Shown: positions 2,733 to 24,757, numbered from the stretch's first letter. The stretch is 25,009 bases of DNA from Patescibacteria group bacterium (GCA_018894495.1 JAHIOY010000066.1:1-25009); one strand, 5' to 3'. The notes: a model not told the origin generated them from the letters alone. Numbers and translations: made by a program.

Positions 2733-2874
2733 CTTGCGAGAAATAATCGATCACCAGGCTATTGGGTATTAGCTCCGCTTTCGCGGAGTTATTCCCATCT
2801 CGGTGGTATGTATCTACGTGTTACTAACCCGTTCGCCGCTATCGCTCGCGCCTCGCTATGCTCGGCACTCGCTC

Positions 2875-2988: not shown

Positions 2989-3095
2989 GGAGTTCGCGCC
3001 GAACGCAGTGAGGCACGAACGACCGCACGACTTGCATGCCTTATCCACGCCGCCAGCGTTCATCCTGGACCAGGATCAAATCCTCAAAAATAATG

Positions 3096-3600: not shown

Positions 3601-3606
3601 AATATT

Positions 3607-3634
3607 AATTTTTAATTTTTAATTTTTAATTTTT
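3607..3634. repeat. (AATTTTT)x4 heptamer tandem repeat filling rnc-rpsP gap
   Basis: Four perfect 7-nt units. Confidence 0.85.
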
Positions 3635-3639
3635 AAAAT

Positions 3640-4329
3640 CTACCAACCTTTTTGTTCAAGCGCATTTTTGGCTGCTTTTTCTTCTGCCTCTTGTTTTGAA
3701 GAGCCATCGCCCTTGGCTATCAGTTCTTCGTCAAGAAAGACACCGATAATAAAATGTTTGGCATGGTCGGGTCCCCATTCTTCTAATGCCTTATAGCCGG
3801 GGGTAATCCCAACCCTTTCCTGAGATTCTTCCTGGAAACGCGATTTGTTGTCTCTAAAAAGCCCTTTTTCAATAATTTCCGGCAGTTCAATGATTAAATT
3901 TTTATCAACAAATTCTTTGGCAGCTCCATAACCTTGGTCAAGATAAGTCGCACCAATTAACGCTTCCAAAGTATTGGCTAAAATGTATTGCCTGGCTTTG
4001 CCGAGCTCTTTTTGTTCGCCTTTGGATAATAATAAAAAATCATTCAAACCGAGGTCTTTGGCAATTTGGGAAAGGGTTTTGGCGTTAACCAAAGAGGCTC
4101 TCCAGCTTGTCAACTCGCCCTCTGACTTTTTGGGGTAATTCCGGTAAATGTATTCGGTAACCGCTAACTCCAAGACCGCATCTCCTAAAAATTCAAGCCG
4201 CTCGTTGTGCGCCAAATAAAAATTCGGATTTTCGTTTAAATAAGAGCGATGAACAAATGCCTGCGTCAATAAGTCCTTATTGTTAAATTTTAAACCAAAT
4301 TTCTTTTCAAGTAAAGAAAAATCTTTCAT
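3640..4329 (-). CDS. rnc: Ribonuclease III
   Basis: [13 protein letters not shown] signature; C-terminal dsRBD (GPDHAKHF...[12 protein letters not shown]). Confidence 0.98.
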
Positions 4330-4736
4330 AGTTGTTTATAGACCGTCCCCAAGACGCCATTGATAAATTTCCCGGACCTGTCTCCGCCAAACGCCTTTGC
4401 CAATTCAATGGCTTCGTTTATCGCCACTTTTGACGGAACGGCTTTTTTATCTCCATATAGAACCTCATATAATCCGAGTCGCAAAATATTCCTGTCAACT
4501 ATGCTTATCTGTTCAATCGGCCATTCCGAAGCCGTTTTTTCAATAAGATTATCAATTTCTTTTAAATGTGAAAGGACGCCGTTCACTAATTGTAAAGCAA
4601 ATTCATCGCTCAGTCCCGGTCCAAATTCTTTAATGTTTCTTTCTAAGATTTTTTTTAGGTCTGCCTTCTTTTCGTAAAAATCCCATTCATATAAACTTTG
4701 GATAGCGATGGCGCGCGATAAATACCGGCTTGACAT
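4326..4736 (-). CDS. nusB: Transcription antitermination factor NusB
   Basis: [13 protein letters not shown]...VDRNILRLG...[14 protein letters not shown]...FINGVLG. Confidence 0.97.
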
Positions 4737-4745
4737 AAATTTCTA

Positions 4746-4876
4746 AAATCCGAAATTCGAATATCGAAATTCGAAACAAATCCAAATAATTAAAATTTAA
4801 AATTCTAAACCGGTTTAATTTTTTGAATTTAGAATTTAGATATTGTTTCGGATTTCGTGCTTCGTGCTTCGAATTT
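4746..4876. repeat. Heptamer hairpin (AAATTCG/AAGCACG type, 'family A') filling rpmF-nusB gap
   Basis: Imperfect ~60-bp stem; shares 20 identical nt (4852-4871 = 9018-9037) with the insertion in rnhB. Confidence 0.88.
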
Positions 4877-5156
4877 ATCTCTTGGAAAGTTCTTCCATAT
4901 TTAAGGGTTTTTCTTTTTTTATTCCTTTGCTTTCTTTCAGTTCCTTCTCTTTTCTCTTTTTTTCTTTTTTTGTCAATTTTTTAAAAACATCAATTACCTC
5001 CACTCCCTTGTAATAACCACAAAGAGGACAAACCCGATGGGGTAAAATTAATTTCGCGCATTTTTGGCATTTAACTAAAAAAGGGGTCTTCAAAAAAATA
5101 TGCATCCGCCTTTTATTCCTTCTTGATTTTGTATGTCTTTGAGTTTGAACAGCCAT
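4875..5156 (-). CDS. rpmF: 50S ribosomal protein L32 (zinc-ribbon type, Lys-rich C-terminal tail)
   Basis: MAVQTQRHTKSRRNKRR...CQKC...PHRVCPLCGYY. Confidence 0.96.
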   Translation of the reverse strand: MAVQTQRHTKSRRNKRRMHIFLKTPFLVKCQKCAKLILPHRVCPLCGYYKGVEVIDVFKKLTKKEKKRKEKELKESKGIKKEKPLNMEELSKR

Positions 5157-5165
5157 ATATACTAC

Positions 5166-5194
5166 ACTATAGCAGAAGTTATTTATTCATTCAA
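5166..5194 (-). promoter_or_regulatory. Putative promoter of rpmF-nusB-rnc-rpsP
   Basis: TTGAAT - 17 nt - TATAGT with extended TG; -10 ends 9 nt before the ATG. Confidence 0.55.
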
Positions 5195-5203
5195 GTTCTA
5201 AAA

Positions 5204-5231
5204 CCCCAATGGCCAAACCCCAATGCCCAAA
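5204..5231. repeat. Heptamer half-arm CCCCAAT-GGCCAAA-CCCCAAT-GCCCAAA
   Basis: Four 7-nt units at the downstream edge of the accessory island. Confidence 0.6.
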
Positions 5232-5254
5232 CTTCATAAGTTTAAAGTTCATTG

Positions 5255-5278
5255 TCTCGAAAACGAAAGTTTTCGAGA
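5255..5278. repeat. Perfect 10-bp hairpin TCTCGAAAAC-GAAA-GTTTTCGAGA (possible terminator or REP)
   Basis: Perfect inverted repeat downstream of DUF2283; no clear U-tract. Confidence 0.6.
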
Positions 5279-5310
5279 AACTTGACCAAGAATATCCTAT
5301 TTCCTTTTAG

Positions 5311-5544
5311 CTATTTGCCCGTAACAGAAATTGGTTGTAAATTCACTAATTCAAGATGTAGCTTTTTATATTTCCGTTTGCGAAGATATCTTTTGGCGTC
5401 AAGAATCTCTATCCCAACCACTGAACCATCAGGAGCATAGTTTATTGCTATGTCTTCGCTAATTCGCTGAGTGATCACTTGAAAATCGCCGTCTTTTAAA
5501 CGGATATAAGCAGCATCAACTTTTGGATCGTAAATTATTTTCAT
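5311..5544 (-). CDS. DUF2283 domain protein (putative antitoxin)
   Basis: MKIIYDPKVDAAYIRL...GSVVGIEILDA. Confidence 0.88.
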   Translation of the reverse strand: MKIIYDPKVDAAYIRLKDGDFQVITQRISEDIAINYAPDGSVVGIEILDAKRYLRKRKYKKLHLELVNLQPISVTGK

Positions 5545-5551
5545 AATTTTG

Positions 5552-5806
5552 TTAGAAATAAAATGTATAAACTGTAATCACGATGATTTTATTTTGTTCT
5601 TCTTTAATTATTGGCATTATTTGTTTAATTCGATAGAATTTCTTACTCCATCTTTTGTTGAATTAAAAATTTTTACGATAAGTATGGCGATTTTCTTTAA
5701 CTGGTAGTTTTTCACTTGTTCTAATAGTGTCTATGACTTCATCTCTTGTGGCTCCTCGTTCTTGCATTTGAAGTAAAGCATGATTTGAGAAAACAACCAG
5801 TTTCAT
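5552..5806 (-). pseudogene. DUF4258-like (RelE-like) toxin interrupted by in-frame TAA at 5663-5665
   Basis: Manual translation: MKLVVFSNHALLQMQERGATRDEVIDTIRT...YRKNF*FNKRWSKKFYRIKQIMPIIKEEQNKIIVITVYTFYF*; directly upstream of DUF2283. Confidence 0.8.
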
Positions 5807-5889
5807 TTAAATAGTCTATCAATTCAAAAACCAAAAGTCAAATTAAATAGCCGGATTATCAGTTTATTCTTGAATTCTTCGTTATTCAT
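5803..5889 (-). pseudogene. Possible N-terminal remnant of a four-helix-bundle (IVS-type) protein
   Basis: MNNEEFKNKLIIRLFNLTFGF*IDRLFK*; directly preceded by a heptamer arm. Family assignment is from remembered similarity only. Confidence 0.45.
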
Positions 5890-5890
5890 A

Positions 5891-5927
5891 AACTTTTAAC
5901 TTTGAACTTTGCACTTTTAACTTTGCA
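5891..5927. repeat. Family B single arm
   Basis: 5891-5922 is identical to 2701-2732 in the 16S V2 hairpin. Confidence 0.88.
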
Positions 5928-5955
5928 GGAGTCGGGTCTCTGTCGGTTTTTTGAC

Positions 5956-6186
5956 TTAATCTCGTGGGAATTTAATAAATTCTTCAATAGTTATATTTAT
6001 GTCATCTATAATTCCTTTTAAGGTTTTCCTGCCTATATCTTTTCCTGAATGAATGGGAACGGTTACTCTGCGACCATCAGAATGCTTAAATTGAGCATGG
6101 CTACCAACTTGATGATGTTTATAAAAACCGAGTTTAATTAAAACTTGAATTAGTTCTTTTGATCTCAGGACGGGTAGTTTCGGCAT
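5956..6186 (-). CDS. hicA: HicA family mRNA interferase toxin
   Basis: LGFYKHHQVGSHAQFKH...VTVPIH...IGRKTLKGI. Confidence 0.93.
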   Translation of the reverse strand: MPKLPVLRSKELIQVLIKLGFYKHHQVGSHAQFKHSDGRRVTVPIHSGKDIGRKTLKGIIDDINITIEEFIKFPRD

Positions 6187-6195
6187 TAAATTTAA

Positions 6196-6453
6196 TTAAG
6201 AAACAGGATTTAATTCTTTTTGAGAGAATGACTGGATAAATTCAAAAGCATCCTCTTCTCTGGGAATAGATTGTTTATCTTTTAACAATCCCTGGATATG
6301 ACATTTAATTGCCTCTCTAATATTTTTTTTTACTTCTTCAATGGTCTCGCCGCAAGTATGCAATCCCCTTAGAATAGGAACGAAACCATAATATCCTTTC
6401 GGCTCATCAGGTTCAATAATAACTCTAAATGTATAGGTATTAGAATATTTCAT
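6196..6453 (-). CDS. hicB: HicB family antitoxin (short form)
   Basis: YTFRVIIEPDE...VPILRGLHTCGETIEEVKKNIREAI. ATG at 6453 is preferred over the upstream TTG. Confidence 0.9.
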   Translation of the reverse strand: MKYSNTYTFRVIIEPDEPKGYYGFVPILRGLHTCGETIEEVKKNIREAIKCHIQGLLKDKQSIPREEDAFEFIQSFSQKELNPVS

Positions 6454-6460
6454 ATATTTA

Positions 6461-6489
6461 ATGTTAACAAATTGTGAAGATAAAATCAA
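6461..6489 (-). promoter_or_regulatory. Putative hicBA promoter
   Basis: TTGATT - 17 nt - TAACAT with extended TG; -10 is 7 nt before the ATG. Confidence 0.5.
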
Positions 6490-6704
6490 ATTTCAAAACA
6501 GAGTTGGAAAAAATAGAGTTGACCCCATTTTCTTTTCTGTTTTAAACAAGGGAAAATAGAGTTGACCCCGTTTTTTTTCGTTTTTAAAAGTTTTACAAAA
6601 TAAACGAAATCTTCCTTCTCCCGAAAAACTGTTTGTCGATTGTTTCCTCTATTAAGAACATGAAAAGGTAGGTTTGGAAGAGTAATTCGTAAGGGTCTTG
6701 GCAT
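6486..6704 (-). pseudogene. Truncated REP-associated tyrosine transposase (RAYT/Y1) N-terminus
   Basis: MPRPLRITLPNLPFHVLNRGNNRQTVFREKEDFVYFVKLL matches RAYT N-termini. Similarity stops after about 42 aa, before the HUH motif. Confidence 0.8.
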
Positions 6705-6780
6705 ATGGATCTATCATAACGCAAATTGTTAAATTAAATAGAGTTGACACCTATTTCTCACCTTCACCTATTTCTCACCT
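6510..6780. repeat. Three copies of AAATAGAGTTGAC(C/A)CC (6510-6526, 6553-6569, 6736-6751) plus tandem CACCTATTTCTCACCT x2 (6748-6780)
   Basis: Direct repeats bracketing the RAYT fragment. Confidence 0.8.
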
Positions 6781-6880
6781 TTTTTTAACTAATAGTGGTA
6801 TTCCCTTAACTCCACCACCCATCGGAGCCTCGCGTGAAGTGCTCGTCGAGACGGTGGCACACTGTGCATACCCCTATTAG

Positions 6881-7972
6881 CTAATGACAACCGATCTCCA
6901 CCCTATTGGTTGAGGGATTGCCGATGGTGCAGACATTAGAGCAATATATTGATGGGGGTCCGACGTCGTACCATTTGCTCCATTGGTTATATAAGCAGTC
7001 ACCGCAGTTGACGGGGCCGAAGCCGGCGCCGCAGTTATATTTTTGGATTGCGGCGGTGTTGGACCACGTGGTGGGGCCACTAGATATGTTGCCCCCGCAG
7101 CTGTCGCCGCCCCATGTGGCGATTGTATAGCGTTGCCAACTGGCTGCTTGTATCCATGTAGCCGGGCAGTCGGTGGCCGTATATTTACAGAAAGTATATG
7201 TGCCATCTGTGACTATTATTCCACCTCCTTCTGTGCATAGCACTTCGTTGTGCGTTGAACCAGGGTATGTCAGAGGTAATGGGGGCGTTGCGCTTACTTC
7301 AGCAGATTTGACACCTTCGCCAATTGCGTTAATTGCCGAGACTTTGTAATAATAAGTGCCGCCGGTAAGGGCTGTATCGGTGAAAGAAGTAGCGGCTGAA
7401 CCAACATTAGTAAGATAAATTTCCGAGCCGGAAGAAATACTCCTGTAAACCTTGTAATCCGTAATGGCCCTGCCATTATCAGTTGGAGCAGACCAAGACA
7501 GAGAGACTTGGGAATTGCCGGGGGTAGCTGAGAGGTTGGTGACTTGGGAAGGCGCCGCGGCACCGCTCGTCAAGATGACATACGACTGGCCGTTTATGGA
7601 AACTTTGAGGTCTTTAGTAGTAGGGTCAAGATAAATCACTGCTTGATTTGGAGATGAAACTGCTGGTTGAGATATTGCCCTAAAAATCATTGCTCCATTT
7701 ACATCTAGCTTCGCCCCCGGGATTGTCGTCCCGATGCCGACATTGCCGTAAGGAACCAAGAGTCCATTAGCTAAAGTTCCGTCGGTATTTAACATTAGAT
7801 TACCTTGTTTGGATTGACCTATGGGACCAGCATTGATTGGGGCCGAGACATTGCCTGCTGGCGGGGCTGATGTTGGTTCTGTCCATGCATAAATGATAGC
7901 CACCACAAGGAGAGTGGCAATGACGATAGCTGGCAAGCCAGCCAAGAAAACTGACTTTATTTTTTGAAACAT
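6881..7972 (-). CDS. Membrane-anchored surface protein: N-terminal TM, WTEP..PP.GN..AP module, GNVGIGTT repeat, fibronectin type III domain, Cys-rich C-terminal domain
   Basis: Hydrophobic N-terminus; FN3 pattern PSQVTNLSATPGNSQVSLSWSAP...YKVYR...FTDT...YYYKVSAIN; many Cys in the last ~120 aa. Confidence 0.85.
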   Translation of the reverse strand: MFQKIKSVFLAGLPAIVIATLLVVAIIYAWTEPTSAPPAGNVSAPINAGPIGQSKQGNLMLNTDGTLANGLLVPYGNVGIGTTIPGAKLDVNGAMIFRAISQPAVSSPNQAVIYLDPTTKDLKVSINGQSYVILTSGAAAPSQVTNLSATPGNSQVSLSWSAPTDNGRAITDYKVYRSISSGSEIYLTNVGSAATSFTDTALTGGTYYYKVSAINAIGEGVKSAEVSATPPLPLTYPGSTHNEVLCTEGGGIIVTDGTYTFCKYTATDCPATWIQAASWQRYTIATWGGDSCGGNISSGPTTWSNTAAIQKYNCGAGFGPVNCGDCLYNQWSKWYDVGPPSIYCSNVCTIGNPSTNRVEIGCH

Positions 7973-8050
7973 GGTTTTTTAAAATTTTTAATTTCTAATT
8001 CTTCAATTTTTAAACGGGAAATCTGATTGAAAATTTTATTGTTGCGACCT

Positions 8051-8380
8051 TTATTTTGGCGGGGTTAATTTCTTTAAAATTTCTTCAGCGGTTTTTGAAG
8101 TTTCTTTTGTTGGAGAAGAGAGATTCTTAAAGGTCTCTTCCAAGTCCTTTCTTTCTTTTTCAGAAAGGGGTTGAGGCGGAGTTAGAGCTCTTAAAATCTC
8201 TTGAGGGGTTTTTTCTTTTTTAATTTTGATAATGGGCTGATAGATTTCTTTTTCAATTTCTGGCATTCTTGAGAAACGCCATATTAAGACAAAAGAAATT
8301 AAACTAACTAAAATAATAATGCTAAAATAGAGAAAGGATTTTTTGTCTTTTGTTGATTGAAATTTTAGAGTTTTCCACAT
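8051..8380 (-). CDS. Small membrane-anchored hypothetical protein
   Basis: One TM segment; duplicated motif KTxxEILxxLTPP. Confidence 0.75.
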   Translation of the reverse strand: MWKTLKFQSTKDKKSFLYFSIIILVSLISFVLIWRFSRMPEIEKEIYQPIIKIKKEKTPQEILRALTPPQPLSEKERKDLEETFKNLSSPTKETSKTAEEILKKLTPPK

Positions 8381-8381
8381 C

Positions 8382-9170
8382 TTATATTAAAATACTCTTA
8401 ACTGGTTCAAATGTCAAACGGTGAATAGCCGAGGGGCCATATTTTTTTAGCATAGCCCGATGTTTTTTTGTTGGATATCCTTTGTGTTGGGCAAAACCAT
8501 ATTGGGGGTATTTCTTGTGATACCTTTTCATTATTTTATCCCGCCAGACCTTTGCCAAAATGCTTGCCGCGGCGCAGGAAAAAACTTTTTCATCTCCTTT
8601 GATAATTGACTTTTGAGGGATTTTCACATCAATTTTAAAGTTCCCATCTAAAATTAAAAAATCAACCTTACCACTTAACCAGCGATCGCCGTTTAAGTGG
8701 TAAAATTGGTGACAGCCCGCCCTCTGCAATTTTTTTCCTAAGTTTTTAATTGCTTTAATCATCGCCAATTTCGTCGCCTCCAAAATGTTAATTTTATCAA
8801 TCACTTTTTCTGAAACCCTGCCTATCCCCCACTCAATTTTAGGATGCGTAGTTAATATCTTATAGAATTTTTCTCGCGCCTTTGGAGAAAGTTTCTTAGA
8901 GTCACGAAGTTTTAAATCCGAAATCCGAAATCCGAAATCCGAAACAATATTTAAATTCAAAATTCTAAATTCTAAACTGTTTTGAATTTGGGATTTAGAT
9001 ATTAGGATTTGTTTCGAATTTCGTGCTTCGTGCTTCGGATTTTTAATCATTACTGCCCCTGCGACTACCGGTCCTGCGAGCGGACCTCTCCCTACCTCAT
9101 CTAATCCCACCACTCTTTTATATCCCCTTCTCCATAATTTTCTTTCTTCAAAAAAATTTGGATATTTCAT
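8382..9170 (-). CDS. rnhB: Ribonuclease HII with two in-frame hairpin-derived insertions
   Basis: GLDEVGRGPLAGPVVA, RDSKKLS, DG, KGDEK..SCAAASILAKV.RD, HKGYPT motifs. Confidence 0.96.
   Translation of the reverse strand: MKYPNFFEERKLWRRGYKRVVGLDEVGRGPLAGPVVAGAVMIKNPKHEARNSKQILISKSQIQNSLEFRILNLNIVSDFGFRISDLKLRDSKKLSPKAREKFYKILTTHPKIEWGIGRVSEKVIDKINILEATKLAMIKAIKNLGKKLQRAGCHQFYHLNGDRWLSGKVDFLILDGNFKIDVKIPQKSIIKGDEKVFSCAAASILAKVWRDKIMKRYHKKYPQYGFAQHKGYPTKKHRAMLKKYGPSAIHRLTFEPVKSILI
8913..9044. repeat. Family A heptamer hairpin inserted in frame in rnhB (about 44 codons)
   Basis: (aaatccg)x4 arm and ttcgtgcttcgtgcttcgg arm; encodes KNPKHEARNSKQ...SDFGFRISDL. Confidence 0.88.
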
Positions 9171-9270
9171 AAAATTATTGTATTATTAAATTATTATATC
9201 ATATTCTTTACATCCTTTTCTTTTTCTAAAATTTTTTCTATAATAAGAGAGCGTTGAGTAATTGAGCGGA

Positions 9271-9293
9271 ATGTTGAGGTTAGACCTCAACAT
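9271..9293. repeat. REP-like hairpin ATGTTGAGGT-TAG-ACCTCAACAT
   Basis: Perfect 10-bp stem; homolog at 18769-18793. Confidence 0.8.
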
Positions 9294-9318
9294 CTTCCAA
9301 ATAGTAAGAGTGTTGAAC

Positions 9319-9358
9319 TTCGTTAAAAATCAATCTTTATTGATTTTTAGACTATGAA
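9319..9358 (+). repeat. 40-bp hairpin-containing direct repeat, copy 1
   Basis: ttcgttaaaaatcaat-cttt-attgatttttagactatgaa. Confidence 0.9.
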
Positions 9359-10028
9359 TAATAATAATATTTTAAGCCAGGCAGAAATTGAAAAGGAGCT
9401 AATGTCGGCTGAGGTAGCTGGCAGAGGAGCTAATTTCAACAAAAAAATAATTAAAGAAATTAACCTTTCGGAAACGGAGATTAAAACACCCGTTTCATTT
9501 GAAGGGACAAAGTTTTTAGGCCGGGCTTATTTTAATAAAACAATTTTTGACGGCGATTTAATTCTCAAATCAGCTATTTTTAACACCGGTCTCTATTTAG
9601 GAGAGGCGATTTTAAAGGGAAACCTGCAGGGACAGGAACTCAGGGTAAGAGAATCAATCAATATGATTGGAATAAAAATAGAAAAAAATATCAATTTAGA
9701 GGCGGCTAAAATCAGGGGATTTTTCGGAATAAATAAGGCCGAAATCAGGGGCGATGTCAATTTTAAAAAAATAATTGTTTTAAATCTGGAAAGCCCGAGC
9801 GGAATTATTCCCGGGGACGTCTATTTCCAAAACACTAAAATAATGGGTTCGGTTGATTTGCAAGAAGCGCTCATCAGCGGCTTATTGGACCTCAGCGGCA
9901 TAATAATCGGGCATTCTTTAAATCTGACTAATGCTGAAATTAAAGAATATTTACTTTTGAAACAGGGTATAATAAACGGAGAGGTTAAATTAAGCGGCTT
10001 GAAATATAAAGAGAAAATAATTCGTTAA
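9354..10028 (+). CDS. Hypothetical beta-helix / pentapeptide-like repeat protein
   Basis: About 11-residue periodic pattern (F/L-x-x-A-x-I-x-G-x-V/L) over most of its length. Confidence 0.7.
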   Translation: MNNNNILSQAEIEKELMSAEVAGRGANFNKKIIKEINLSETEIKTPVSFEGTKFLGRAYFNKTIFDGDLILKSAIFNTGLYLGEAILKGNLQGQELRVRESINMIGIKIEKNINLEAAKIRGFFGINKAEIRGDVNFKKIIVLNLESPSGIIPGDVYFQNTKIMGSVDLQEALISGLLDLSGIIIGHSLNLTNAEIKEYLLLKQGIINGEVKLSGLKYKEKIIR

Positions 10029-10060
10029 AAATCAATAAAGATTGATTTTTAGACTATGAA
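10021..10060 (+). repeat. 40-bp hairpin-containing direct repeat, copy 2 (loop reverse-complemented)
   Basis: ttcgttaaaaatcaat-aaag-attgatttttagactatgaa. Confidence 0.9.
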
Positions 10061-15035: not shown

Positions 15036-15157
15036 TCAACGAATATCGAATCAATTACGAATAAACGAATAAACGAATTCGCAAATTCGTAATAAATTCG
15101 TTTTTCGCTGATTTGTTTATTCGCAAATTCGTAAAGAATTCGTTATTCGCTGATTTC
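15034..15157. repeat. CGAAT-rich hairpin ('family C') after thrS
   Basis: 15127-15155 is the reverse complement of 24661-24689 at 28/29 nt. Confidence 0.85.
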
Positions 15158-15192
15158 AAAAGGTCGAAAAAAATTATAAACTATAAAAATTT

Positions 15193-16758: not shown

Positions 16759-16779
16759 AATTTCTTTCTCTAAAGAAAT

Positions 16780-16812
16780 CCAAAAACCCGTCTAAAAGCG
16801 GGTTTTTGGTTT
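16780..16812 (+). terminator. Intrinsic terminator-like hairpin
   Basis: ccaaaaacccg / cgggtttttgg 11-bp stem 21 nt after the stop codon. Confidence 0.65.
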
Positions 16813-16838
16813 GAAAAGATGAAAAATTTTGTTAGAAT
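16811..16838 (+). promoter_or_regulatory. Putative miaB promoter (leaderless geometry)
   Basis: TTGAAA - 16 nt - TAGAAT with extended TG; 7 nt to the ATG at 16846. Confidence 0.5.
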
Positions 16839-16845
16839 AAACAAT

Positions 16846-17847
16846 ATGAAATATCACATTATAACCTTTGGCTGTCAGATGAATAAATCGGATTCAGAAC
16901 GAATTGCTACGGTTTTGGAAAACAGGGGTTATCAACCGGCTTCAAATATTAATGAGGCTGATTTAATCGTGGTTAATATGTGCTCGGTCAGACAATCGGC
17001 CGTTGACCGAGTGTATGGCAAAATTTCTGACTTTGCCAAGTTAAAAGTTAAAAATGAAAAGTTAAAAGTTATTTTAACGGGTTGTATCACAAAAAGCGAT
17101 AAACGGAAATTTGAAAATAAATTTGACCAGATCCTAAAATTCAAGGATTTATTAAAAGAGCAGCCAAAATATCAAGATAAATCCATAGTTTATGTGCCGA
17201 TTTCCAGTGGCTGTAATAATGCCTGCACTTATTGCGTCGTGCCTTTTACCCGTGGTAGTTTAGTTTGCCGAGACCATCGGGAGATTTTAAAAGAAGTGAA
17301 AAAGGTAGTTCAAAATGGCGCCAAAGAGATATGGCTTTTGGGACAAAACGTGAATGACTATACCTCGCGCACGGATGGTTCAATTGATTTTTCCGAATTA
17401 TTGAGAATGATAAATGATATTCCCGGCGATTTCTTAATTAGATTCGTCTCTCCAAATCCTAAAAATTTCTCTGACAAATTAATTGAGACAATGGTCGGAG
17501 CGAAAAAAATTACCAAGTACCTTCATCTGCCCGTCCAATCAGGAGACAACGAAATTTTAAAAAAGATGAACCGGCCTTATACGGTTGAACAATATAAAAA
17601 TCTGGTTAAAAAAATTCGGAAAAAAATTCCGAAAATCAATTTATCAACCGACATTATTGTCGGTTTTCCCGGGGAGACAGAAAAACAATTCCAAAACACA
17701 GTGAAATTATTTAAAGAAATTAAATTTAATTATGCCTACATTGCTAAATATTCTCCAAGACCCGGAACAGCCGCCTTTAAATTAAAAGATGATGTTTCAT
17801 TAAAGGAGAAAAAGCGGAGATGGAAAATTTTAAATTCGTATATATGA
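16846..17847 (+). CDS. miaB: MiaB-like tRNA methylthiotransferase lacking TRAM domain
   Basis: FGCQMN, NMCSVR, TGC cysteines; radical SAM CNNACTYC; HLPVQSG; DIIVGFPGET; adjacent to miaA. Confidence 0.9.
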   Translation: MKYHIITFGCQMNKSDSERIATVLENRGYQPASNINEADLIVVNMCSVRQSAVDRVYGKISDFAKLKVKNEKLKVILTGCITKSDKRKFENKFDQILKFKDLLKEQPKYQDKSIVYVPISSGCNNACTYCVVPFTRGSLVCRDHREILKEVKKVVQNGAKEIWLLGQNVNDYTSRTDGSIDFSELLRMINDIPGDFLIRFVSPNPKNFSDKLIETMVGAKKITKYLHLPVQSGDNEILKKMNRPYTVEQYKNLVKKIRKKIPKINLSTDIIVGFPGETEKQFQNTVKLFKEIKFNYAYIAKYSPRPGTAAFKLKDDVSLKEKKRRWKILNSYI

Positions 17848-18770
17848 AAAAACTCATTGTTATTTTAGGACCAACGGCTGCGGGAAAAACTGAATTGGCG
17901 ATTAGATTAGCTAAAAAATTTGACGGCGAGATCGTTTCGGCCGATTCAAGGCAGGTCTATCGGGGAATGAATATCGGAACCGGCAAAATTACTAAGAAAG
18001 GCAGGGGCGGTATCCCCCACGAGCTTTTAGATGTTGCCAGTCCGAAAAGAAGGTTTACAGTTACTCAATATCAAAAATTGGCTCTTAAAGCATTAGAAAA
18101 GATTTTTAAAAAAGGAAAAATTCCGATTTTAGTTGGCGGAACAGGATTTTATATTCAAGCCGTAGTTGATGGGATAGTTATCCCCGAAGTAAGGCCGAAT
18201 TGGCGGTTGAGGTCTAACCTCAACAAACTTCCCGTTGAGGAACTTTATAAAATCTTAAAAAAACTTGACCCCAAAAGGGCGAAGACAATTGAAAAGGAAA
18301 ACCCAAGAAGATTGATTAGGGCAATTGAAATTGTAAAGAAAACAAAAAATCCAGTTCCGCCATTAAAATTCAATCCTCTCCCCTACCCTGTTTTGATGCT
18401 CGGAATTAAGAGACCAAAAAAAGAATTGGAAGAAAAAATAAAAAAAAGATTTTTTGAGTGGCTAAAAAGAGGGCTCATTTTGGAAGCAATAAAATTAAGG
18501 AAAATGGGGCTCTCTTTCAAAAGGATTGAAGAATTTGGAATGCACTATAGAGAAATTGCAAAATATTTACAAAATAAAATAGATGAAAAAGAAATGATTG
18601 AGAATTCGATAAAAGAAATCCAAAACTATGCTAAACGGCAAATGACTTGGTTTAAGCGCGACCCCGCACCAGAACCTTCGATTCGGTACGGGGCAGGCAA
18701 AAGAATTCTTTGGGTTCAAAATTACCGAATGGCAGAAAAATTAGTAAAAAATTTTTTGAAAAAAAAATAA
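17844..18770 (+). CDS. miaA: tRNA dimethylallyltransferase
   Basis: GPTAAGKT, SADSRQVYRGM.IGTGK, GGTGFY, YAKRQMTWF; ATGA overlap with the miaB stop. Confidence 0.97.
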   Translation: MKKLIVILGPTAAGKTELAIRLAKKFDGEIVSADSRQVYRGMNIGTGKITKKGRGGIPHELLDVASPKRRFTVTQYQKLALKALEKIFKKGKIPILVGGTGFYIQAVVDGIVIPEVRPNWRLRSNLNKLPVEELYKILKKLDPKRAKTIEKENPRRLIRAIEIVKKTKNPVPPLKFNPLPYPVLMLGIKRPKKELEEKIKKRFFEWLKRGLILEAIKLRKMGLSFKRIEEFGMHYREIAKYLQNKIDEKEMIENSIKEIQNYAKRQMTWFKRDPAPEPSIRYGAGKRILWVQNYRMAEKLVKNFLKKK

Positions 18771-18793
18771 TGTAGAGGTTAGACCTCTACATT
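18769..18793. repeat. REP-like hairpin AATGTAGAGGT-TAG-ACCTCTACATT between convergent miaA and gatB (possible bidirectional terminator)
   Basis: Perfect 11-bp stem; compensatory change relative to the 9271 copy. Confidence 0.8.
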
Positions 18794-18811
18794 GAATAAT
18801 TAATGGCAACG

Positions 18812-20395
18812 TCAAACGTTGCCAGCCGTTGCCATTAACTTATTGAGCAGGTTATGGACGATGTCAGGGTTGGCTTTGCCTCCGGTTTCTTGTATTACCT
18901 GACCAATTAAAAATTGGAGGGCATTTGCTTTTCCTTTTTTGAAATCTTGAACCGCTTTTTGGTTTCTTAAAATCACTTCTTTGACAATTTTTTCGAGCGC
19001 CGACTCATCGGTTATTTGAACTAAGCCCTTTTCCTCAATAATGTGGGAAGGGTCGGCTCCGGTTGAAAACATTTCTGTCAGAACCATTTTAGCAATTGGC
19101 GATGAAATTTTTCCTTCATAAATTAAAATTATAAATTCAGCAAAATTTTCAGGAGTAATTAACCCCGTTAGAGATTCTTTCTCTAACGGGGTAAAAAAAT
19201 CTTTACCCTCCCAAGTTTTTTTCAAAAATTTGGGAGGGCGAACCGATGCCCCTTTTAATAACCCCCGCAGGTCAGTAAGCAGATAATTAGAACAAACTTT
19301 TATGAGATGAAAATAACTCTCTTTCTTTGGTTCTGGCTTTATTTCTTTTAGCCACTGGCCTAATTCTGAAATCGCTTTTTCAAAGTAATTACTCAATGCC
19401 CGAGCTTGAATAAAAATCTCAATCTCTTGAGCTGACAAATTGTATTCTTTTTTAAACCTTTCTCTCTTTTGCTGCGGCAGTTCGGGAATTTCGGATTTTA
19501 TTTCATCAATTAAATTTTGAGAGATGGATAAAGACGGTAAATCGGGCTCGGGAAAATAGCGATAATCCTGAGATTCTTCCTTCTCTCTTTGACTAATGGT
19601 CACTCCTTTAACATCGTCCCATCCTTTCGTTTCTTGAATAACTTTTTCTCCGAGAGCAAGCAGTTTTGACTGCCTTTCAATTTCATAATCAATCGCCTTT
19701 TCCAGCGCTTTAAATGAGTTCAAGTTTTTAATTTCCACCTTTGTCCCTAATTCCTTATTCTTAATTCCTGATTCTCGCAATGATATATTCGCTTCAACGC
19801 GCATTTCTCCTTTTTCCATATCAGCGTTGGAAACGTTAAGGTATCTTAAAATCAATTGTAATTCTTCGGCAAACTTCCTTGCTTCTTTGGCTGACCTCAA
19901 GTCTGGCTCCGTAACCAACTCCATTAAAGGAATTCCAGCCCGATTAAAATCAACCAAAGAATAATTCTTTTCATGGATTAAACTACCCGTATCTTCCTCT
20001 AAATGAACTTCCCGAATTCTAATTTTTTTTACCCCGTTGGAAGCCGAAGGCTTTCCTTCGGGGCTACCATTAATTTCTAAAAATCCATTTTTGCAAAAAG
20101 GAGCGGCATACTGGCTTATCTGGTATCCTTTTGGCAAGTCAGGATAAAAATAGTTTTTCCGTTCAAATTTTGAATATTCAGGAATTTGGCAATTTAGGGC
20201 CAGACCGGTTTTTATTGTTTTTCTGACCGCTTCTTTATTAATGACCGGAAGCGTTCCCGGCTGCGCCGTGCAAATCGGACAAATATTAACATTCGGATGA
20301 CATTCATTGGGATTGTTGAGGCAATCGCAAAACATTTTACTCCGCGTATTTAATTCTACATGTATCTCCAGTCCAATTATTGGTTGATACTTCAT
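18812..20395 (-). CDS. gatB: Asp-tRNA(Asn)/Glu-tRNA(Gln) amidotransferase subunit B with three hairpin-derived inserts
   Basis: IGLEIHVEL, RKNYFYPDLPKGYQISQ, HLEEDTG, DFNRAGIPLMELV, YRYFPEPDL. Confidence 0.98.
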   Translation of the reverse strand: MKYQPIIGLEIHVELNTRSKMFCDCLNNPNECHPNVNICPICTAQPGTLPVINKEAVRKTIKTGLALNCQIPEYSKFERKNYFYPDLPKGYQISQYAAPFCKNGFLEINGSPEGKPSASNGVKKIRIREVHLEEDTGSLIHEKNYSLVDFNRAGIPLMELVTEPDLRSAKEARKFAEELQLILRYLNVSNADMEKGEMRVEANISLRESGIKNKELGTKVEIKNLNSFKALEKAIDYEIERQSKLLALGEKVIQETKGWDDVKGVTISQREKEESQDYRYFPEPDLPSLSISQNLIDEIKSEIPELPQQKRERFKKEYNLSAQEIEIFIQARALSNYFEKAISELGQWLKEIKPEPKKESYFHLIKVCSNYLLTDLRGLLKGASVRPPKFLKKTWEGKDFFTPLEKESLTGLITPENFAEFIILIYEGKISSPIAKMVLTEMFSTGADPSHIIEEKGLVQITDESALEKIVKEVILRNQKAVQDFKKGKANALQFLIGQVIQETGGKANPDIVHNLLNKLMATAGNV

Positions 20396-20403
20396 TTTTC
20401 TGA

Positions 20404-20442
20404 TATAACACCTTTTCTCACGATCGTGAAAAAGGTGTTATA
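20404..20442. repeat. Near-perfect 39-nt palindrome between thyX and gatB
   Basis: tataacacctttt-c-tcacgatcgtga-aaaaggtgttata. Confidence 0.8.
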
Positions 20443-20464
20443 GTAATGATTTTGGCAATTTTTT

Positions 20465-21118: not shown

Positions 21119-21148
21119 TGTTTTAAAATTTGAAAAATTTTAGAAAAT

Positions 21149-21751
21149 TTATATATAAATAATTTTTTTAATCTGGGAAAATACTTCTTCCCTCGATTTC
21201 TCTCCGTCAATGAGATAGACATTTTCAAATTTTTTTGCCAATTTTTCATAATTTGCCCAGACCTTTGCCAAAACCTCTTCTTTTTCAAAAAGGGTGAGTT
21301 CAAATCGATCTTTTTTTATTCTTTCAACGCAACTTTTAGGAGAGACCTTTAGAAAAAAAGTTAAGTCCGGCAAAAGAAATTTGTTATTTATCTCAATCAA
21401 CCAGTCGAGGTCTTTGATTTGCAAATTTCCATAAGCCATTGTTGAAAAAAAATATCTATCAGAAATGACGTTGATTCCCCTTTTCAGCAAAGGGCTCACT
21501 TCTTTTTCTAAATGATAAGCCCGGTCAGCTGAAAATAAAAGTTGAAGGCATTCTGGCGAAGATTTCCAATCGTGAGTGAGCTGGCTTTTGATTAGTCCTC
21601 CAATTAAACCCGAAGTTGGCTCTTTTGTAATATGAGTTCTTTTCCCTTTATTATTTAAATATTCAGCAAGCAAATTCACCTGAGTGGAATTCCCGGCACC
21701 ATCAAGTGAATCAAAAACAATAAATTTTCCCGAGTATGGATTTTTTTTCAC
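21149..21751 (-). CDS. tmk: Thymidylate kinase (non-canonical P-loop)
   Basis: KFIVFDSLDGAGNSTQ, TKEPT, LFSADRAYH, SDRYFFSTMAY, PDLTFFL; GTG start. Confidence 0.92.
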   Translation of the reverse strand: MKKNPYSGKFIVFDSLDGAGNSTQVNLLAEYLNNKGKRTHITKEPTSGLIGGLIKSQLTHDWKSSPECLQLLFSADRAYHLEKEVSPLLKRGINVISDRYFFSTMAYGNLQIKDLDWLIEINNKFLLPDLTFFLKVSPKSCVERIKKDRFELTLFEKEEVLAKVWANYEKLAKKFENVYLIDGEKSREEVFSQIKKIIYI

Positions 21752-21853
21752 CCCGTTAGAAGTCTGTCTTTATACGATTAAACAGGTTTTTATTTCTGAA
21801 TTTTTCAAATTCCGAAATAAAGAACATCGCTTTCAGACAGACCTATATTTTTT

Positions 21854-22483
21854 CTATTTTTTATATCTTTTAACCTCTTTTTCCAAAAATTCTTTGATTT
21901 CTTGCGACTGAAAACTTTTCTCTAAAAAATCTATTTTAAGCTCTTCTAAAACATTGAAATAAATTAACTGTCCTAAAAATAATTTCTCTGAAAAAAGTCC
22001 TTGAAACTTTTTCTGGGCATCGCGAATAATTCTCTCCAAATTATGACCCCTCTTAATTATGAAAAATAAATCAACATAATCCCGCCAAACTGGACGTCTG
22101 CCGAGGGTGTAAGATTTGTCGGCTGCAATATCTTTCCAATCAAAAATAGAAATTGAGGAAGTTTTAATTATTCTATAAAGCGGCCTGAATGGGTAGTAAA
22201 AAAATGTAACTTTAATGTCTTGGGGAGTAAAAAAGGTCAGTTCATTTTCTGATTCTTGAATTACCTTTATTTTTTTACTAAAAATTTTTCCAATTTCCCA
22301 GGATAAATTCACAGGGATTTTCTTTGAGGTAAAAATATCAAAATCATAAGACCTCCTGTGCCTCAACTGAAAAGCCAGGGCCGTGCCTCCAGCCATAATT
22401 CCGATTTGCTTTAGAACTTTTAGTTTAGTGAAAACCGATTTTTGATTAGGGGTTAAAACCTCATTAATATAAAGTTGCGACAT
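21854..22483 (-). CDS. AbiEii-like nucleotidyltransferase (type IV TA toxin)
   Basis: MAGGTALAFQLRHRRSYDFDIF; AADK...GRR..WRDYVDLFF. Confidence 0.85.
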   Translation of the reverse strand: MSQLYINEVLTPNQKSVFTKLKVLKQIGIMAGGTALAFQLRHRRSYDFDIFTSKKIPVNLSWEIGKIFSKKIKVIQESENELTFFTPQDIKVTFFYYPFRPLYRIIKTSSISIFDWKDIAADKSYTLGRRPVWRDYVDLFFIIKRGHNLERIIRDAQKKFQGLFSEKLFLGQLIYFNVLEELKIDFLEKSFQSQEIKEFLEKEVKRYKK

Positions 22484-22802
22484 ATTTTTCGGGAAATAAG
22501 GTTTTCCCTTTTATATCTAAAATTATTTTCTTAATAAAATTGAAGTTTTGCGGGGTATAGATTTTCATTGGATTTTTTTTAAAAATCTCTCTCACCTGTT
22601 TTCTGGAGTAAATCTTAAATAGTAAAGATATGTCTTTTAAATCGCCATACATTAAGACCTGATGAATAATATAGTTTTTATCTTTCTCCCAATCAAGTTT
22701 TTTTATATTACAAGACCATAAAATTCCCTGCCAATTTTTAGGAATCGGGGGAAAAGTTTTTTTGAAAGATTTTAATCTTTGTCTATTTTGTATTTTGTTC
22801 AT
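22464..22802 (-). CDS. DUF6922-like partner protein
   Basis: LWSCNIKKLD.EKDKNYIIHQVLMYGDL...L...Y; overlaps the NTase start by 20 nt. Confidence 0.7.
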   Translation of the reverse strand: MNKIQNRQRLKSFKKTFPPIPKNWQGILWSCNIKKLDWEKDKNYIIHQVLMYGDLKDISLLFKIYSRKQVREIFKKNPMKIYTPQNFNFIKKIILDIKGKTLFPEKYVATLY

Positions 22803-22844
22803 AATTCTTTTATTTTATTTCTTCTTATATTTTTTCTATTTTTT

Positions 22845-24653
22845 TCAAACTTTTGGCAAGGTTAAGCCCTCTTGTTTTTGATATTTTCCCTTTCTGTCTT
22901 CGTAGGAAATTTCGCAGGGCTCGCTTCCTCTGATAAATATGATTTGACAAATACCTTCTTCTGCGTAAATTTTTGCCGGCAAGGGAGTGGTGTTTGAAAT
23001 TTCAACCGTAACATAGCCCTGCCAGCAATTGCTTGACCAACAAGCCTTGCCTTCTCTTCTAACATAGAGGGTGTGATTGGGAACGGTTACATCGTAGACA
23101 AAACCATCGTAATCTATTTTTGAAAATGAATTCTTATAAATCTTTGGGGTGAGATGTCTCTTGCTTATGCGAATTTTATATATATCATAATTGGGCTTTA
23201 TTAAATGACCTCTCAATTTTCTAACTGGAAAATCCTCTTTTGATATTCGCCTTACTATTGCCACCCAGCCACATTTTAATATTATTTCTTGTAAATCATC
23301 AGCTAATCTTTTAGAAGAAGTTGTAAAGGTGAGAGTCTGAGCATTTCCATCTCCTAACAAAATTGCTTCTAATAAAATTTTTAATTGCTCAAGCGGTAAA
23401 GATTTAATTTCTTTTGGAACAAATTTTTCAGGAGCATGACCAAATTGAAAAAGATAGGAGCAAAGCTGTTTGTTAATTATGGTAAAGCCTGTATTAGTTG
23501 GAAGGTAGTGAAAAGGAAGTTTCTTTAGCCAACTTTCTATTGTTGCTTTGGTATCCTTTTTAAATGCGGCAATTTTGACTATGTAATCGCCTGATCTTGA
23601 TTTATAAGCACTTCCCTCAGCGCACCATATCCCAAAGAACCTTAACCAATCATTTATAGGGATTTTGAGAGGAGAAAGAAAAAACGATAATTCTTTCTCT
23701 GGATAAACTTTTTCCCAGAGAGAAACTTTTATACTATGCCTGTTTATGATTTCTCTTTCGTATTCCCTTTGGAGATATCCTTGATTTTCTAATTTGGCTA
23801 AAGTCCATAAAAATTTTCTCGGCTTAATTTCCTCGCCACAATTTTCATATAACTCTTTGGTGGTTAAGGTATTGCTGCCCAAATCGTTTAAAATTTCTTT
23901 CTTGAGGATGTAACTTGGAAAAAATTTTTTATCTAATTCAATTGCTGGCAATTCAAAGTAATCTATTTTATTGCCTTTCCAAATCGCATCCCTCTTTAAT
24001 TCGTAATTATACTTCTTGTAAACCTCTTGAGCTGGTATAAACTCAAATTCTTTTCTCCATCTATTCCTCACTAAAAGCAAATGGGTTGAGGTTACTGCCA
24101 AATCTATATTTCTGCCCAAAATTCTTATGAGTTTTCCCTTATAGGAAAATTTATGAAATTTTAAAATTTTCTGGTATTCAAGTTCTTCTTTTTTATTTAG
24201 AGTAGCAATACTCTCTGTTCCTTTTAATTCATAAAATCTTTTCCAACCATCTAAGGTTAATATTTCTGTCTTTTCATCATAGCAGGGCTCCAATGGCGTA
24301 ACATTAACTATAATTCCGCAACGGGCATAGGTGGATTTTCCGAGACAGATGCCGATGACGTCTCTCGGAATCTTGAAATATTCAATGCTTCGGCCCAAGA
24401 CAAATGAATTGGGAGGAATTATACACACCTTGCCTTTGAAGTCCACGAATGATTTTGGGTCAAAATTTTTAGGGTCAACTATGGCATTATTGACATTAGT
24501 GAAAATCTTAAAATCATCGGCTATTCTAAAATCATAGCCGTAAGATGAAGCGCCAAAAGAAATCACTCCCTTTCTGACTTGGGACGCGGTAAAGGGCGCA
24601 ATCATTCCATATTTCTTCACATATTCTTTTATTTCTTTATCTGAAAGAACCAT
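22845..24653 (-). CDS. dcd: dCTP deaminase precursor with intein (183 aa after splicing)
   Basis: [25 protein letters not shown] | [24 protein letters not shown]. Confidence 0.96.
23028..24284 (-). mobile_element. 419-aa intein with LAGLIDADG endonuclease
   Basis: Block [11 protein letters not shown], block B VTSTH, LAGLIDADG blocks [10 protein letters not shown] and ILLGDGN, block [15 protein letters not shown]-terminus SSN followed by Cys+1. Confidence 0.95.
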
Positions 24654-24660
24654 ATTAATA

Positions 24661-24757
24661 AATCAACGAATAACGAATTCTTTACGAATATACGAATTTA
24701 AAAACTATATTATTCGTTATTCGTAAATTCGTAACATATTCGCTATTCGCTGATTTC
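24661..24757. repeat. Family C hairpin filling rplK-dcd gap
   Basis: aatcaacgaataacgaattctttacgaat ... attcgctattcgctgatttc; overlaps the last codons of rplK. Confidence 0.85.

Follow-up and report, generated by a model that had tools for sequence, protein, structure and literature searches.

A 25,009-nt stretch of DNA from a Patescibacteria group bacterium (GCA_018894495.1, JAHIOY010000066.1), here called the window, carries hairpin-forming repeats built on a 7-nt period in its intergenic gaps, in its 16S rRNA gene and in several of its core genes. The window is the entire contig C48 of a 1.01 Mb assembly (G000; 154 contigs, 37% G+C, completeness 89%), whose RNase HII has its nearest named homologs in Candidatus Nealsonbacteria and other Parcubacteria. 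The window samples a genome-wide population of such repeats, and these are probably tolerated, selfish-type sequences that were copied across the genome and then remodelled in place. An earlier interpretation made from the window alone (the sequence-only reading) had proposed that hairpin families occupy gaps and core genes without breaking the reading frame, and this was confirmed.

The 7-nt period is the unifying feature of the elements. Tandem Repeats Finder (TRF) detected 151 period-7 arrays with a score of at least 40 in G000, compared with 0–1 in three order-5 Markov genomes, and 292 with a score of at least 34, which cover 10.9 kb. A strict detector returned 108 period-7 arrays versus 1–6 for periods 5–6 and 8–12 and 0 in simulations, while its 29 period-4 arrays were below the simulated 41–42. 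One hundred of the 292 arrays pair as 50 inverted pairs, forming hairpins with heptamer-array arms, and a mismatch-tolerant palindrome scan of G000 identified 207 hairpins scoring at least 14 (15–18 simulated) and 79 scoring at least 20 (0 simulated). The codon-shuffled control proposed with the sequence-only reading was clearly exceeded: across 592 long open reading frames (ORFs), synonymous-codon shuffling left 22–35 arrays where there are really 98, and 4–8 hairpins instead of 35.

Two classes of element coexist: compound hairpins of 70–190 nt with tandem 7-nt arms (E1–E3), and simple hairpins of 20–60 nt (E4–E7 and others) that resemble repetitive extragenic palindromes (REPs). The largest compound family by clustering and BLAST is E3, with AAAGTTA-type units (38 hairpins, about 60 loci), while clustering also defined E2, with ACGAATW units around a central ACGAATTCGT (25 hairpins), and E1, with outer AAATCCG/AAGCACG units, a GAAACAAT hinge and inner AAATTC units (12 hairpins). 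The simple hairpins, comprising E4, E5, E6, E7, a ACCCCGTTAGA type, a GGCAACG type and others, are found at 4–28 loci each. BLAST gave 20–62 loci per large family and clustering added at least eight small families to E1–E3, of which at least nine families are present in the window; the earlier count of at least six hairpin families is thus supported and exceeded. Common units in G000 are AAAAGTT, AAAGTTC, AAATTCG, AAATCCG and similar. The hairpins that the sequence-only reading made its main theme are real, but the dominant feature is the tandem 7-nt units that form their arms, which points to slippage dynamics like those of short tandemly repeated repetitive (STRR) sequences.

Within the window, each gap was folded on both strands against 200 dinucleotide shuffles to obtain z scores. 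Of the 16 gaps after position 3600, 13 contain a hairpin of significant fold or a copy from one of the repeat families, and seven gaps are strongly folded (z −3.0 to −9.1, with 0–3 of 200 shuffles as low): nusB-rpmF, pentapeptide gene-dnaE, thrS-DUF5667, miaA-gatB, gatB-thyX, tmk-NTase (nucleotidyltransferase) and dcd-rplK. These account for seven of the nine gaps that had been singled out beforehand; the eighth, rpsP-rnc, does hold a heptamer run but has no fold, and the ninth, between the FN3 gene and the 109-aa ORF, folds only weakly (z −1.4). Two more hairpins lie in the rnhB-pentapeptide gene gap, others are present in the DUF5667-miaB gap, including one at 16780–16810, and no element was found in the gap between the 112-aa ORF and dcd. 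The description “nearly every gap” therefore fits the window but not the genome, where a strong element occupies 24% of gaps (convergent 27%, divergent 22%, co-directional 24%). On the ORF map, 155 of the 292 arrays are intergenic, while 15% of the genome is non-coding. The reported overlap with stop and start codons was also borne out, as hairpin arms contain the thrS TAA, the rpmF stop, the rplK stop and last codons, the pentapeptide-gene TAA and the gatB TGA, and E4 hairpins lie 5 nt from two ATG codons (Table 1). The E1 hairpin of the nusB-rpmF gap is 74–82% alike to the copy in rnhB, and one of the five genome loci of the GGCAACGTCAAACGTTGCC hairpin falls within an ORF resembling REP-associated tyrosine transposases (RAYTs).

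Two observations concern the simple hairpins of these gaps. Positions 9319–9358 and 10021–10060 are 40-nt direct repeats whose sole difference is the E4 loop, CTTT in one and its reverse complement AAAG in the other, and both loop orientations are seen among the approximately 28 E4 loci, between identical flanks (CGTT...AGACT). E6 hairpins have CGATCG at their tip (20420–20427 in the window).

To assess the in-frame elements, orthologs were collected from 30 genomes of the same order, all from other families, and each protein was aligned with 13–19 of them. This identified net insertions in RnhB (+43 and approximately +20 aa), GatB (+12, +2–4 and +21 aa), ThrS (approximately +18 aa) and MiaA (+12 aa), and each confirmed net insertion is a hairpin or heptamer run at the DNA level. 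The two elements predicted in rnhB, the three in gatB and the one in miaA were thus all recovered, and miaA features a further, length-neutral hairpin in which an E5 core (20–21 nt) replaces the native KLRKKLAKK of its orthologs with a segment of equal length. For thrS, where one or two elements had been suggested, one was found and its fold is weak. The heptamer run in miaB is real and in frame, but its status as an insert was rejected because 13 orthologs have an equally long stretch there, which in some of them carries other heptamer units; Escherichia coli MiaB presumably also has a segment of about this length at the same position. As had been suggested, the inserts were mapped onto a predicted structure, RNase HII being the sole protein modelled. 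In this AlphaFold2 model (30 homologs), the predicted local distance difference test score (pLDDT) falls below 50 only at residues 47–81 and 154–167, compared with 80–96 in the core, so both inserts are modelled as loops that appear to sit at a structurally permissive surface site.

In the record, the rnhB product (P0001; gene at 8382–9170 in the window) has 222 aa, with M41 as its first residue, just upstream of the hairpin insert. This start leaves out the catalytic motif DEVGRG near the N terminus. The motif is contiguous in frame, and the recorded start is probably a gene-calling error. At the tip of the second rnhB hairpin (8680–8690) is GCGATCGC, the HIP1 octamer of cyanobacteria. At 13641–13679, thrS has a 7-aa (21-nt) insertion, LHSG(E/Q)AK, shared by four genomes of different families including G000 and missing from the other ten; no hairpin was found at this insertion.

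Table 1. Repeat elements and the transposase remnant located in the window (positions counted from its first nucleotide; strand given for elements within protein-coding genes)
Feature	Position	Strand	Context	Evidence
E3 heptamer-arm hairpin (AAAGTTA-type)	2615–2728		Tip of 16S helix V2; 16S gene on − strand	Score 16; −32 to −33 kcal/mol
E3 heptamer-arm hairpin, GC-rich outer stem	2842–3022		Tip of 16S helix V1	83-nt arms, score 37
(TTAATTT)x4.6 run	3605–3636		Fills rpsP-rnc gap	TRF, 100% matches; minimum free energy ~0, unfolded
E1 compound hairpin	4746–4876		nusB-rpmF gap; end overlaps rpmF stop	z −3.7 and −4.2
14-nt tandem repeat AAACCCCAATGSCC	5201–5232		rpmF-DUF2283 gap	TRF; eight genome loci
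Single E3 arm (AACTTTG/AACTTTT)	5890–5925		Upstream of hicA	TRF; 32 nt identical to 16S V2 arm
N-terminal remnant of RAYT-like Y1 transposase	6486–6704	−	72-aa ORF	Flanked by three AAATAGAGTTGACMCC (6511, 6554, 6736)
Second rnhB hairpin	8663–8708	−	Residues ~150–168	11–13-bp stem, GCGATCGC at tip
E1 compound hairpin in rnhB	8914–9042	−	129 nt = 43-aa insert, residues ~44–86	z −6.5, −7.2
E5 simple hairpin TGTTGAGGTTAGACCTCAACA	9272–9294		rnhB-pentapeptide gene gap	z −4.2; ~23 genome loci
E4 hairpin TAAAAATCAAT-CTTT-ATTGATTTTTA	9324–9349		Ends 5 nt before ATG of pentapeptide-repeat gene	~28 genome loci
E4 hairpin, loop inverted (AAAG)	10026–10051		Holds upstream TAA; ends 5 nt before dnaE ATG	
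thrS insert, ~18 aa, GC-rich hairpin	13359–13427	+	Within thrS	Absent in 12/13 orthologs; weak fold, z −1.6
E2 hairpin(s), ACGAATW units	15034–15157		thrS-DUF5667 gap, begins within thrS TAA	z −6.7, −8.9
miaB E3 arm AAGTTAAAAGTTAAAAATGAAAAGTTAAAAGTT	17038–17071	+	Encodes KLKVKNEKLKV	32/33 nt match 16S V1 arm
E5 hairpin core in miaA	18206–18225	+	Reads RLRSNLNK; length-neutral	20 nt identical to gap copy
miaA 12-aa insert PAPEPSIRYGAG with hairpin	18672–18707	+	Within miaA	Absent in 12/13 orthologs, similar in G001; z −4.3 (− strand)
Hairpin TGTAGAGGTTAGACCTCTACA, E5-type loop and inner stem	18771–18791		miaA-gatB gap	z −5.2
GGCAACGTCAAACGTTGCC hairpin	18804–18824		Covers gatB stop and last three codons	Five genome loci
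gatB 21-aa insert, 13-bp hairpin (ACCCCGTTAGAGA family)	19154–19219	−	Within gatB	Absent in 13 orthologs; z −5.9
gatB AATTAGG heptamer run (ESGIKNKE)	19746–19774	−	Within gatB; net +2–4 aa	TRF
gatB 12-aa insert (SPEGKPSASNGV), GC-rich hairpin	20024–20059	−	Within gatB	Ortholog alignment; z −2.9
E6 hairpin ATAACACC...CGATCG...GGTGTTAT	20404–20443		gatB-thyX gap	z −4.7; four clustered hairpins, 6 core-motif loci
Nested hairpin, inner element E7	21762–21842		tmk-NTase gap	z −4.7; ~24 loci (E7)
E2 hairpin	24660–24757		dcd-rplK gap; right arm = last rplK codons and stop	z −6.6, −9.1

Genome-wide, 81 of the 292 arrays are located well within ORFs that are 200 aa or longer. Ten hosts were checked (enolase, GyrA, LepA, a GlmU-like transferase, TrmD, ribosomal protein L25, a radical-SAM enzyme, MetRS, TsaD and a DUF6938 protein), and TsaD alone contains four arrays. 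The sense strand is the A-rich strand in 67 of the 81 cases (p 2e-9), and Lys, Ser, Asn and Gln are abundant in the resulting peptides (Lys at 23% versus 11% in the proteome). Because 7 and 3 are coprime, the arrays are read in all three phases and yield peptides with a period of seven residues, such as KLKVKSE, NPKSKIQ and NSKFKIQ. A pure AAAGTTA repeat would place TAA at every seventh codon, and translated copies have GAA, CAA or AATGAA there. The same 33-mer (KLKVKSEKLKV) recurs with 0–1 mismatch in many genes, and identical copies share the variant unit in at least ten unrelated genes; relative to solved homologs, it adds a net 3 aa to enolase and TrmD and is thus nearly length-neutral. 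Full hairpins are much rarer in long ORFs than single arms (3 of the 50 pairs). Elsewhere in the genome (G000:C138:7488–7562), three overlapping exact matches to the E3 33-mer lie 21 nt apart as a 21-nt super-repeat that would encode (KLKVKSE)n.

The same families extend into both large rRNA genes. Comparison with the 16S model (cmscan) showed that the V2 hairpin is a 145-nt insertion at model position ~188 and the V1 hairpin a 162-nt insertion at position ~80, the latter with a fold of −66 to −84 kcal/mol. The 23S gene (contig C122) is approximately 1.4 kb longer than its model and has four family hairpins inside. The 16S gene (1–3083, − strand) also contains LAGLIDADG ORFs at 137–745 and 1253–1870, and its Rfam match spans model positions 9–873 only, within 1026–3083.

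Related genomes carry these repeats very unevenly. Unbiased 20-kb samples from 20 relatives averaged 7.9 period-7 arrays per 100 kb, compared with 19.5 in G000, and ranged from none in several genomes to 11 arrays in 20 kb in one. With up to 3 mismatches allowed, 32 of the 201 genomes of the order contain the E3 33-mer, and G000 is the richest of them (63 matches versus 8 for a reversed control). The 21-nt E5 palindrome is found exactly in three Saccharibacteria metagenome-assembled genomes (MAGs), in multiple copies, and in a Nealsonbacteria MAG. It is also present on single contigs labelled as four other phyla, where MAG contamination is possible. By our estimate, chance would account for about one match. 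A blastn search of 50,697 phage records with E1 and E2 (words of 11, low-complexity filter on) gave no match, which is a weak negative.

One indication of copying comes from E1. All 12 copies have one asymmetric layout, consisting of a GCACGAA-bearing arm, the GAAACAAT hinge and the inner AAATTC arm, in a compound unit of approximately 130 nt whose hinge and loop parts are non-repetitive, and their orientation relative to transcription is uniform in all seven co-directional or in-gene cases. This uniformity of layout and orientation argues for copying from a master rather than independent growth. Copies of E2 likewise have common termini, and the identical 33-mers found in many genes also favour copying. 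In-place remodelling is supported at rnhB, where E1-type hairpins occur at the same site in at least 11 lineages from different metagenomes (60–68% protein identity, z −2.7 to −7.7). Across this series every 5′-arm unit has G, T or C as the variable heptamer base, and the 3′-arm units have C, A or G. Paired cells reach 90.5% versus 86.9% when shuffled, and 11 cells are changed on both sides versus 5.4, with 0 of 500 shuffles reaching 11. This is suggestive of concerted, arm-compensated unit change, as read from an alignment of related sequences whose signal lies in three columns only. The same rnhB site is taken up in other genomes by heptamer hairpins or arrays of unrelated sequence, and at the miaB site one genome has (AAAGCTC)n, read as KAQSSKL. 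Copies that leave the length of a segment unchanged, or nearly so, also speak for remodelling in place. The colonisation described as “ongoing” by the sequence-only reading is not supported by an rnhB hairpin that is orthologous in at least 11 lineages. Conservation in distant orthologs, which that reading took as evidence against itself, applies in part to the rnhB insert and the miaB segment, while the inserts in gatB, thrS and miaA are absent in 12–13 of 13.

In the scenario that we favour, family members would be copied to new sites, where they would behave as selfish or near-neutral DNA. The arms would then change where they lie, with 7-nt units being gained, lost and homogenised via slippage or short-patch conversion, and selection would retain those copies that preserve the frame, avoid stop codons and are read in the A-rich strand sense. 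More speculatively, a RAYT-like Y1 (HUH) transposase might be the copying enzyme, and some copies might derive from ectopic conversion of a native segment rather than from insertion.

Candidate transposases were identified by searching the genome for Y1_Tnp domains. This gave seven hits, of which four are above the Pfam cut-off (ORFs of approximately 225–250 aa) and three are weaker; in the NCBIfam REP_Tyr_transpos model they score 27–41 bits versus a cut-off of 80. Two Y1 ORFs have small GC-rich hairpins of their own at either side, which is the classical REP-RAYT layout: the C34 ORF (4862–5575) lies between hairpins of the form CAGAGAAC-N-GTTCTCTG at 4829 and 5578, and the C68 ORF (721–1476) has CACAGGTCCGACCTGTG at 653–705 and 1484. 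Mobilisation of the large families by RAYTs is therefore a conjecture, as RAYT-like genes are flanked by small GC-rich hairpins instead. The RAYT fragment previously noticed in the window is genuine: 28 aa of the 72-aa ORF are 43% identical to a full genome copy (E 1e-6; blastp and tblastn), although the ORF itself has no Pfam match. The AAATAGAGTTGACMCC sequences that flank it constitute direct-repeat family D12.

Several results weigh against copying followed by remodelling. None of six RAYT-like ORFs (the C79 hit was left out) has an E1, E2 or E3 hairpin within 400 nt, which leaves the link between RAYTs and the heptamer families conjectural, and Y1_Tnp hits number 1–3 in five E3-rich genomes versus 0–2 in five E3-poor ones, a weak and non-independent trend. 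Inspection by eye of 37 E1 and E2 flanks revealed no target-site duplication or fixed target motif. Length-neutral copies (miaB and the E5 core of miaA, with enolase and TrmD coming close) are unlike the prediction of a copy-paste process. Among paralogous G000 copies, the complementarity between the arms of one element does not exceed that between its arms and those of the rest, and apparent structure-preserving evolution is confined to those three columns of the orthologous rnhB series. Finally, no near-identical strain was found: the best-matching rnhB homolog shares 68% identity, the exact NusB protein was found on no other contig, and there was no direct observation of either mobility or 7-nt length polymorphism. 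The concerted change of units in one arm, followed by the other, and the length-neutral overwriting of coding segments could be accommodated by a dedicated DNA-level process of Parcubacteria that writes heptamer palindromes and keeps them palindromic, and that would generate protein loops and rRNA expansion segments specific to this clade, although this seems improbable to us. Such a process could involve template switching or short-patch conversion, possibly driven by a Y1/HUH enzyme, and, if it exists, the elements would be neither ordinary transposons nor slippage products.

Other explanations were weighed against the same data. That the repeats reflect chance, low-complexity A+T-rich sequence, codon usage or an assembly artefact has negligible probability: the genome is indeed 37% G+C and fragmented, and Lys/Leu/Val-rich peptides do give some 7-nt periodicity, which explains why shuffled ORFs still contain arrays, but the Markov, dinucleotide and synonymous-codon controls are exceeded several-fold or more and refute composition as a cause. 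The elements also lie inside contigs with unique flanks and intact frames, and independent assemblies from other samples have the same elements at the same rnhB site. A more substantial alternative, which we nevertheless regard as unlikely, is that the hairpins are functional RNA or DNA structures under selection (sites in polycistronic transcripts that RNase III processes or that stabilise the RNA, operators close to start codons, or rRNA intervening sequences that can be excised) whose spread reflects regulatory recruitment. The uniform orientation of E1 relative to transcription would fit a functional role, but could equally represent strand-specific insertion relative to replication, and although many E2 and E4 copies end 0–8 nt from a start codon, proximity to starts and stops is expected anyway where the median gap of the genome is 95 nt. 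Retention of the rnhB hairpin at one site in so many lineages, with some compensatory change, also favours function, as does the position of hairpins at rRNA helix tips, where RNase III-excised intervening sequences occur in other bacteria. On the other hand, convergent, divergent and co-directional gaps are equally occupied, the same families appear in ORFs, rRNA and gaps alike, unrelated sequences occupy the same site in different genomes, paralogous copies show no arm covariation and no Rfam family matches the elements. Known RNA families can likewise be set aside in the window, where Rfam matches only the 16S rRNA. The transcript punctuation proposed by the sequence-only reading is a hypothesis, and as a class the elements are not intrinsic terminators, since gap type makes no difference to their occurrence and a T-run is missing from most of them; in the window, only the hairpin at 16780–16810 has the form of a GC-rich stem followed by a T-run.

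A purely local origin, in which each array grew in situ by slippage in 7-nt steps and palindromes arose by local template switching without any movement, appears less plausible still and is in our view very unlikely. It would readily explain why the excess is strictly limited to period 7, why units change in concert and differ between genomes at one orthologous site, and why some arrays are length-neutral within native segments. Heptanucleotide repeats are also the commonest class of long simple sequence repeats (SSRs) in several bacterial groups, for which slippage has been proposed (Mrazek et al. 2007, as relayed in PMC4679880). However, independent growth is difficult to reconcile with the asymmetric 130-nt architecture of E1, including its non-repetitive hinge and loop, at 12 sites, with the common termini of E2, or with identical 33-mers that share the same variant unit in at least ten unrelated genes and recur in several families of the order. 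Non-periodic E4–E7 elements are also multi-copy, and one 21-mer is exact in both Saccharibacteria and Nealsonbacteria genomes. DDE-derived miniature transposable elements with inverted repeats (MITEs) were considered and rejected, as the E1 and E2 flanks have no visible target-site duplication and the whole element is palindromic without separate terminal repeats.

Copying followed by remodelling has parallels in several known systems. The closest is the Rickettsia palindromic elements (RPEs) reportedly described by Ogata et al. 2000, and the comparison drawn by the sequence-only reading is apt, in that a 129-nt hairpin forms a 43-aa in-frame insert in RnhB and leaves the frame intact. Set beside RPEs by description, which are also treated in a review of MITEs (PMC10969869), the elements are palindromic families of approximately 100–150 nt in a reduced genome, located both between genes and in frame within housekeeping proteins, where they are read as extra surface loops and the protein is not destroyed. 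They differ from RPEs in having arms of tandem 7-nt units that turn over as whole units, in colonising rRNA helices, in sometimes replacing native segments without a change in length and in including at least one ancient insert (rnhB) that is common to an order-level clade. Bacteria of the Candidate Phyla Radiation (CPR) also reportedly carry rRNA insertions (Brown et al. 2015). Like those and like rRNA intervening sequences, the elements are hairpin segments at variable 16S and 23S helix tips, beside insertions that encode homing endonucleases; unlike intervening sequences, they belong to families also found in gaps and proteins, and they are known from the gene sequence.

The resemblance to STRRs and heptanucleotide SSRs lies in a genome-wide excess of exact 7-nt units, with several unit types per genome, and in mostly short arrays of 3–10 units, many of which are close to start codons. 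In contrast to the STRRs of heterocystous cyanobacteria, the units are A/T-rich (AAAGTTA, AAATCCG, ACGAATT), differ from the STRR1–3 consensus sequences, and occur in a CPR host of the Parcubacteria; half of the paired arrays form long hairpins, and more than a quarter of arrays are inside long ORFs. Heptanucleotide SSRs elsewhere include the TAACTGA repeats of Beggiatoaceae (PMC4679880) and heptamers of Xanthomonas and Nostoc (PMC4692102). With the REP/REPIN and RAYT systems (PMC3733652, PMC3116915), in which some REPs are known inside genes, the simple families share small imperfect palindromes and multiple families per genome, as well as Y1/HUH genes with their own hairpins on either side (contigs C34 and C68). 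One E2 subfamily is bounded by CTAC...GTAG, reading CTACGAATTT...AAATTCGTAG, which may correspond to the conserved GTAG or CGTC tag at one end of such palindromes. Unlike in those systems, copy numbers are low (4–28 loci per simple family) and there are seven Y1 paralogs rather than one domesticated gene, the Y1 proteins score below the RAYT cut-off, and the heptamer-arm families were not seen alongside any of the six RAYT-like ORFs inspected. In the open-access literature, no paper that we could find deals with heptamer or palindromic repeats of CPR bacteria, Patescibacteria or Parcubacteria, and we could not find a description of this combination of translated, rRNA-colonising heptamer hairpins with whole-unit turnover in a CPR clade.

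CPR bacteria are usually called streamlined, yet approximately 1% of this 1-Mb genome consists of period-7 repeats, which reach RNase HII, GatB, ThrRS, MiaA, enolase, GyrA, LepA, TrmD, MetRS, TsaD and both large rRNAs. If our interpretation is correct, this would add to Rickettsia a second, independent system in nature whose selfish-type palindromes are translated into loops of proteins, and the 7-nt/7-residue signature would make gain, loss and turnover easier to trace over hundreds of MAGs. The length-neutral overwriting and the concerted, arm-compensated change of units raise mechanistic questions of their own. In practical terms, such repeats break assemblies, may mislead gene callers, as perhaps in the rnhB call, and inflate the apparent divergence of proteins and rRNA. 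In G000, 23 of the 308 contig ends fall within 150 nt of a period-7 array, and the repeats probably contribute to the fragmentation of this assembly.

The gene order of the window starts with the 16S rRNA gene and its two LAGLIDADG ORFs, followed by rpsP, rnc, nusB and rpmF. A small group of genes encoding a DUF2283 protein, HicA and HicB, the RAYT-like fragment, an FN3 protein and the 109-aa ORF comes next and looks like an inserted accessory island. The region in question is 5157–8381; rnhB and rpmF are neighbours in three relatives (L122, L126 and L127) and lie 3.2 kb apart in G000. Beyond it are rnhB, the pentapeptide-repeat gene, dnaE, thrS, a gene for a DUF5667/Kazal protein, miaB and miaA, and then gatB, thyX, tmk, an AbiEii-DUF6922 pair, dcd with an intein, and rplK. 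The dCTP deaminase gene (22845–24653) has a 602-aa product with DCD matches at both ends, and its intein features a LAGLIDADG-like domain. The miaB gene (16819–17847) encodes 342 aa without the C-terminal TRAM region found in most relatives and overlaps miaA by 28 nt, while in two relatives (L069 and L075) miaB and miaA are fused in one open frame.

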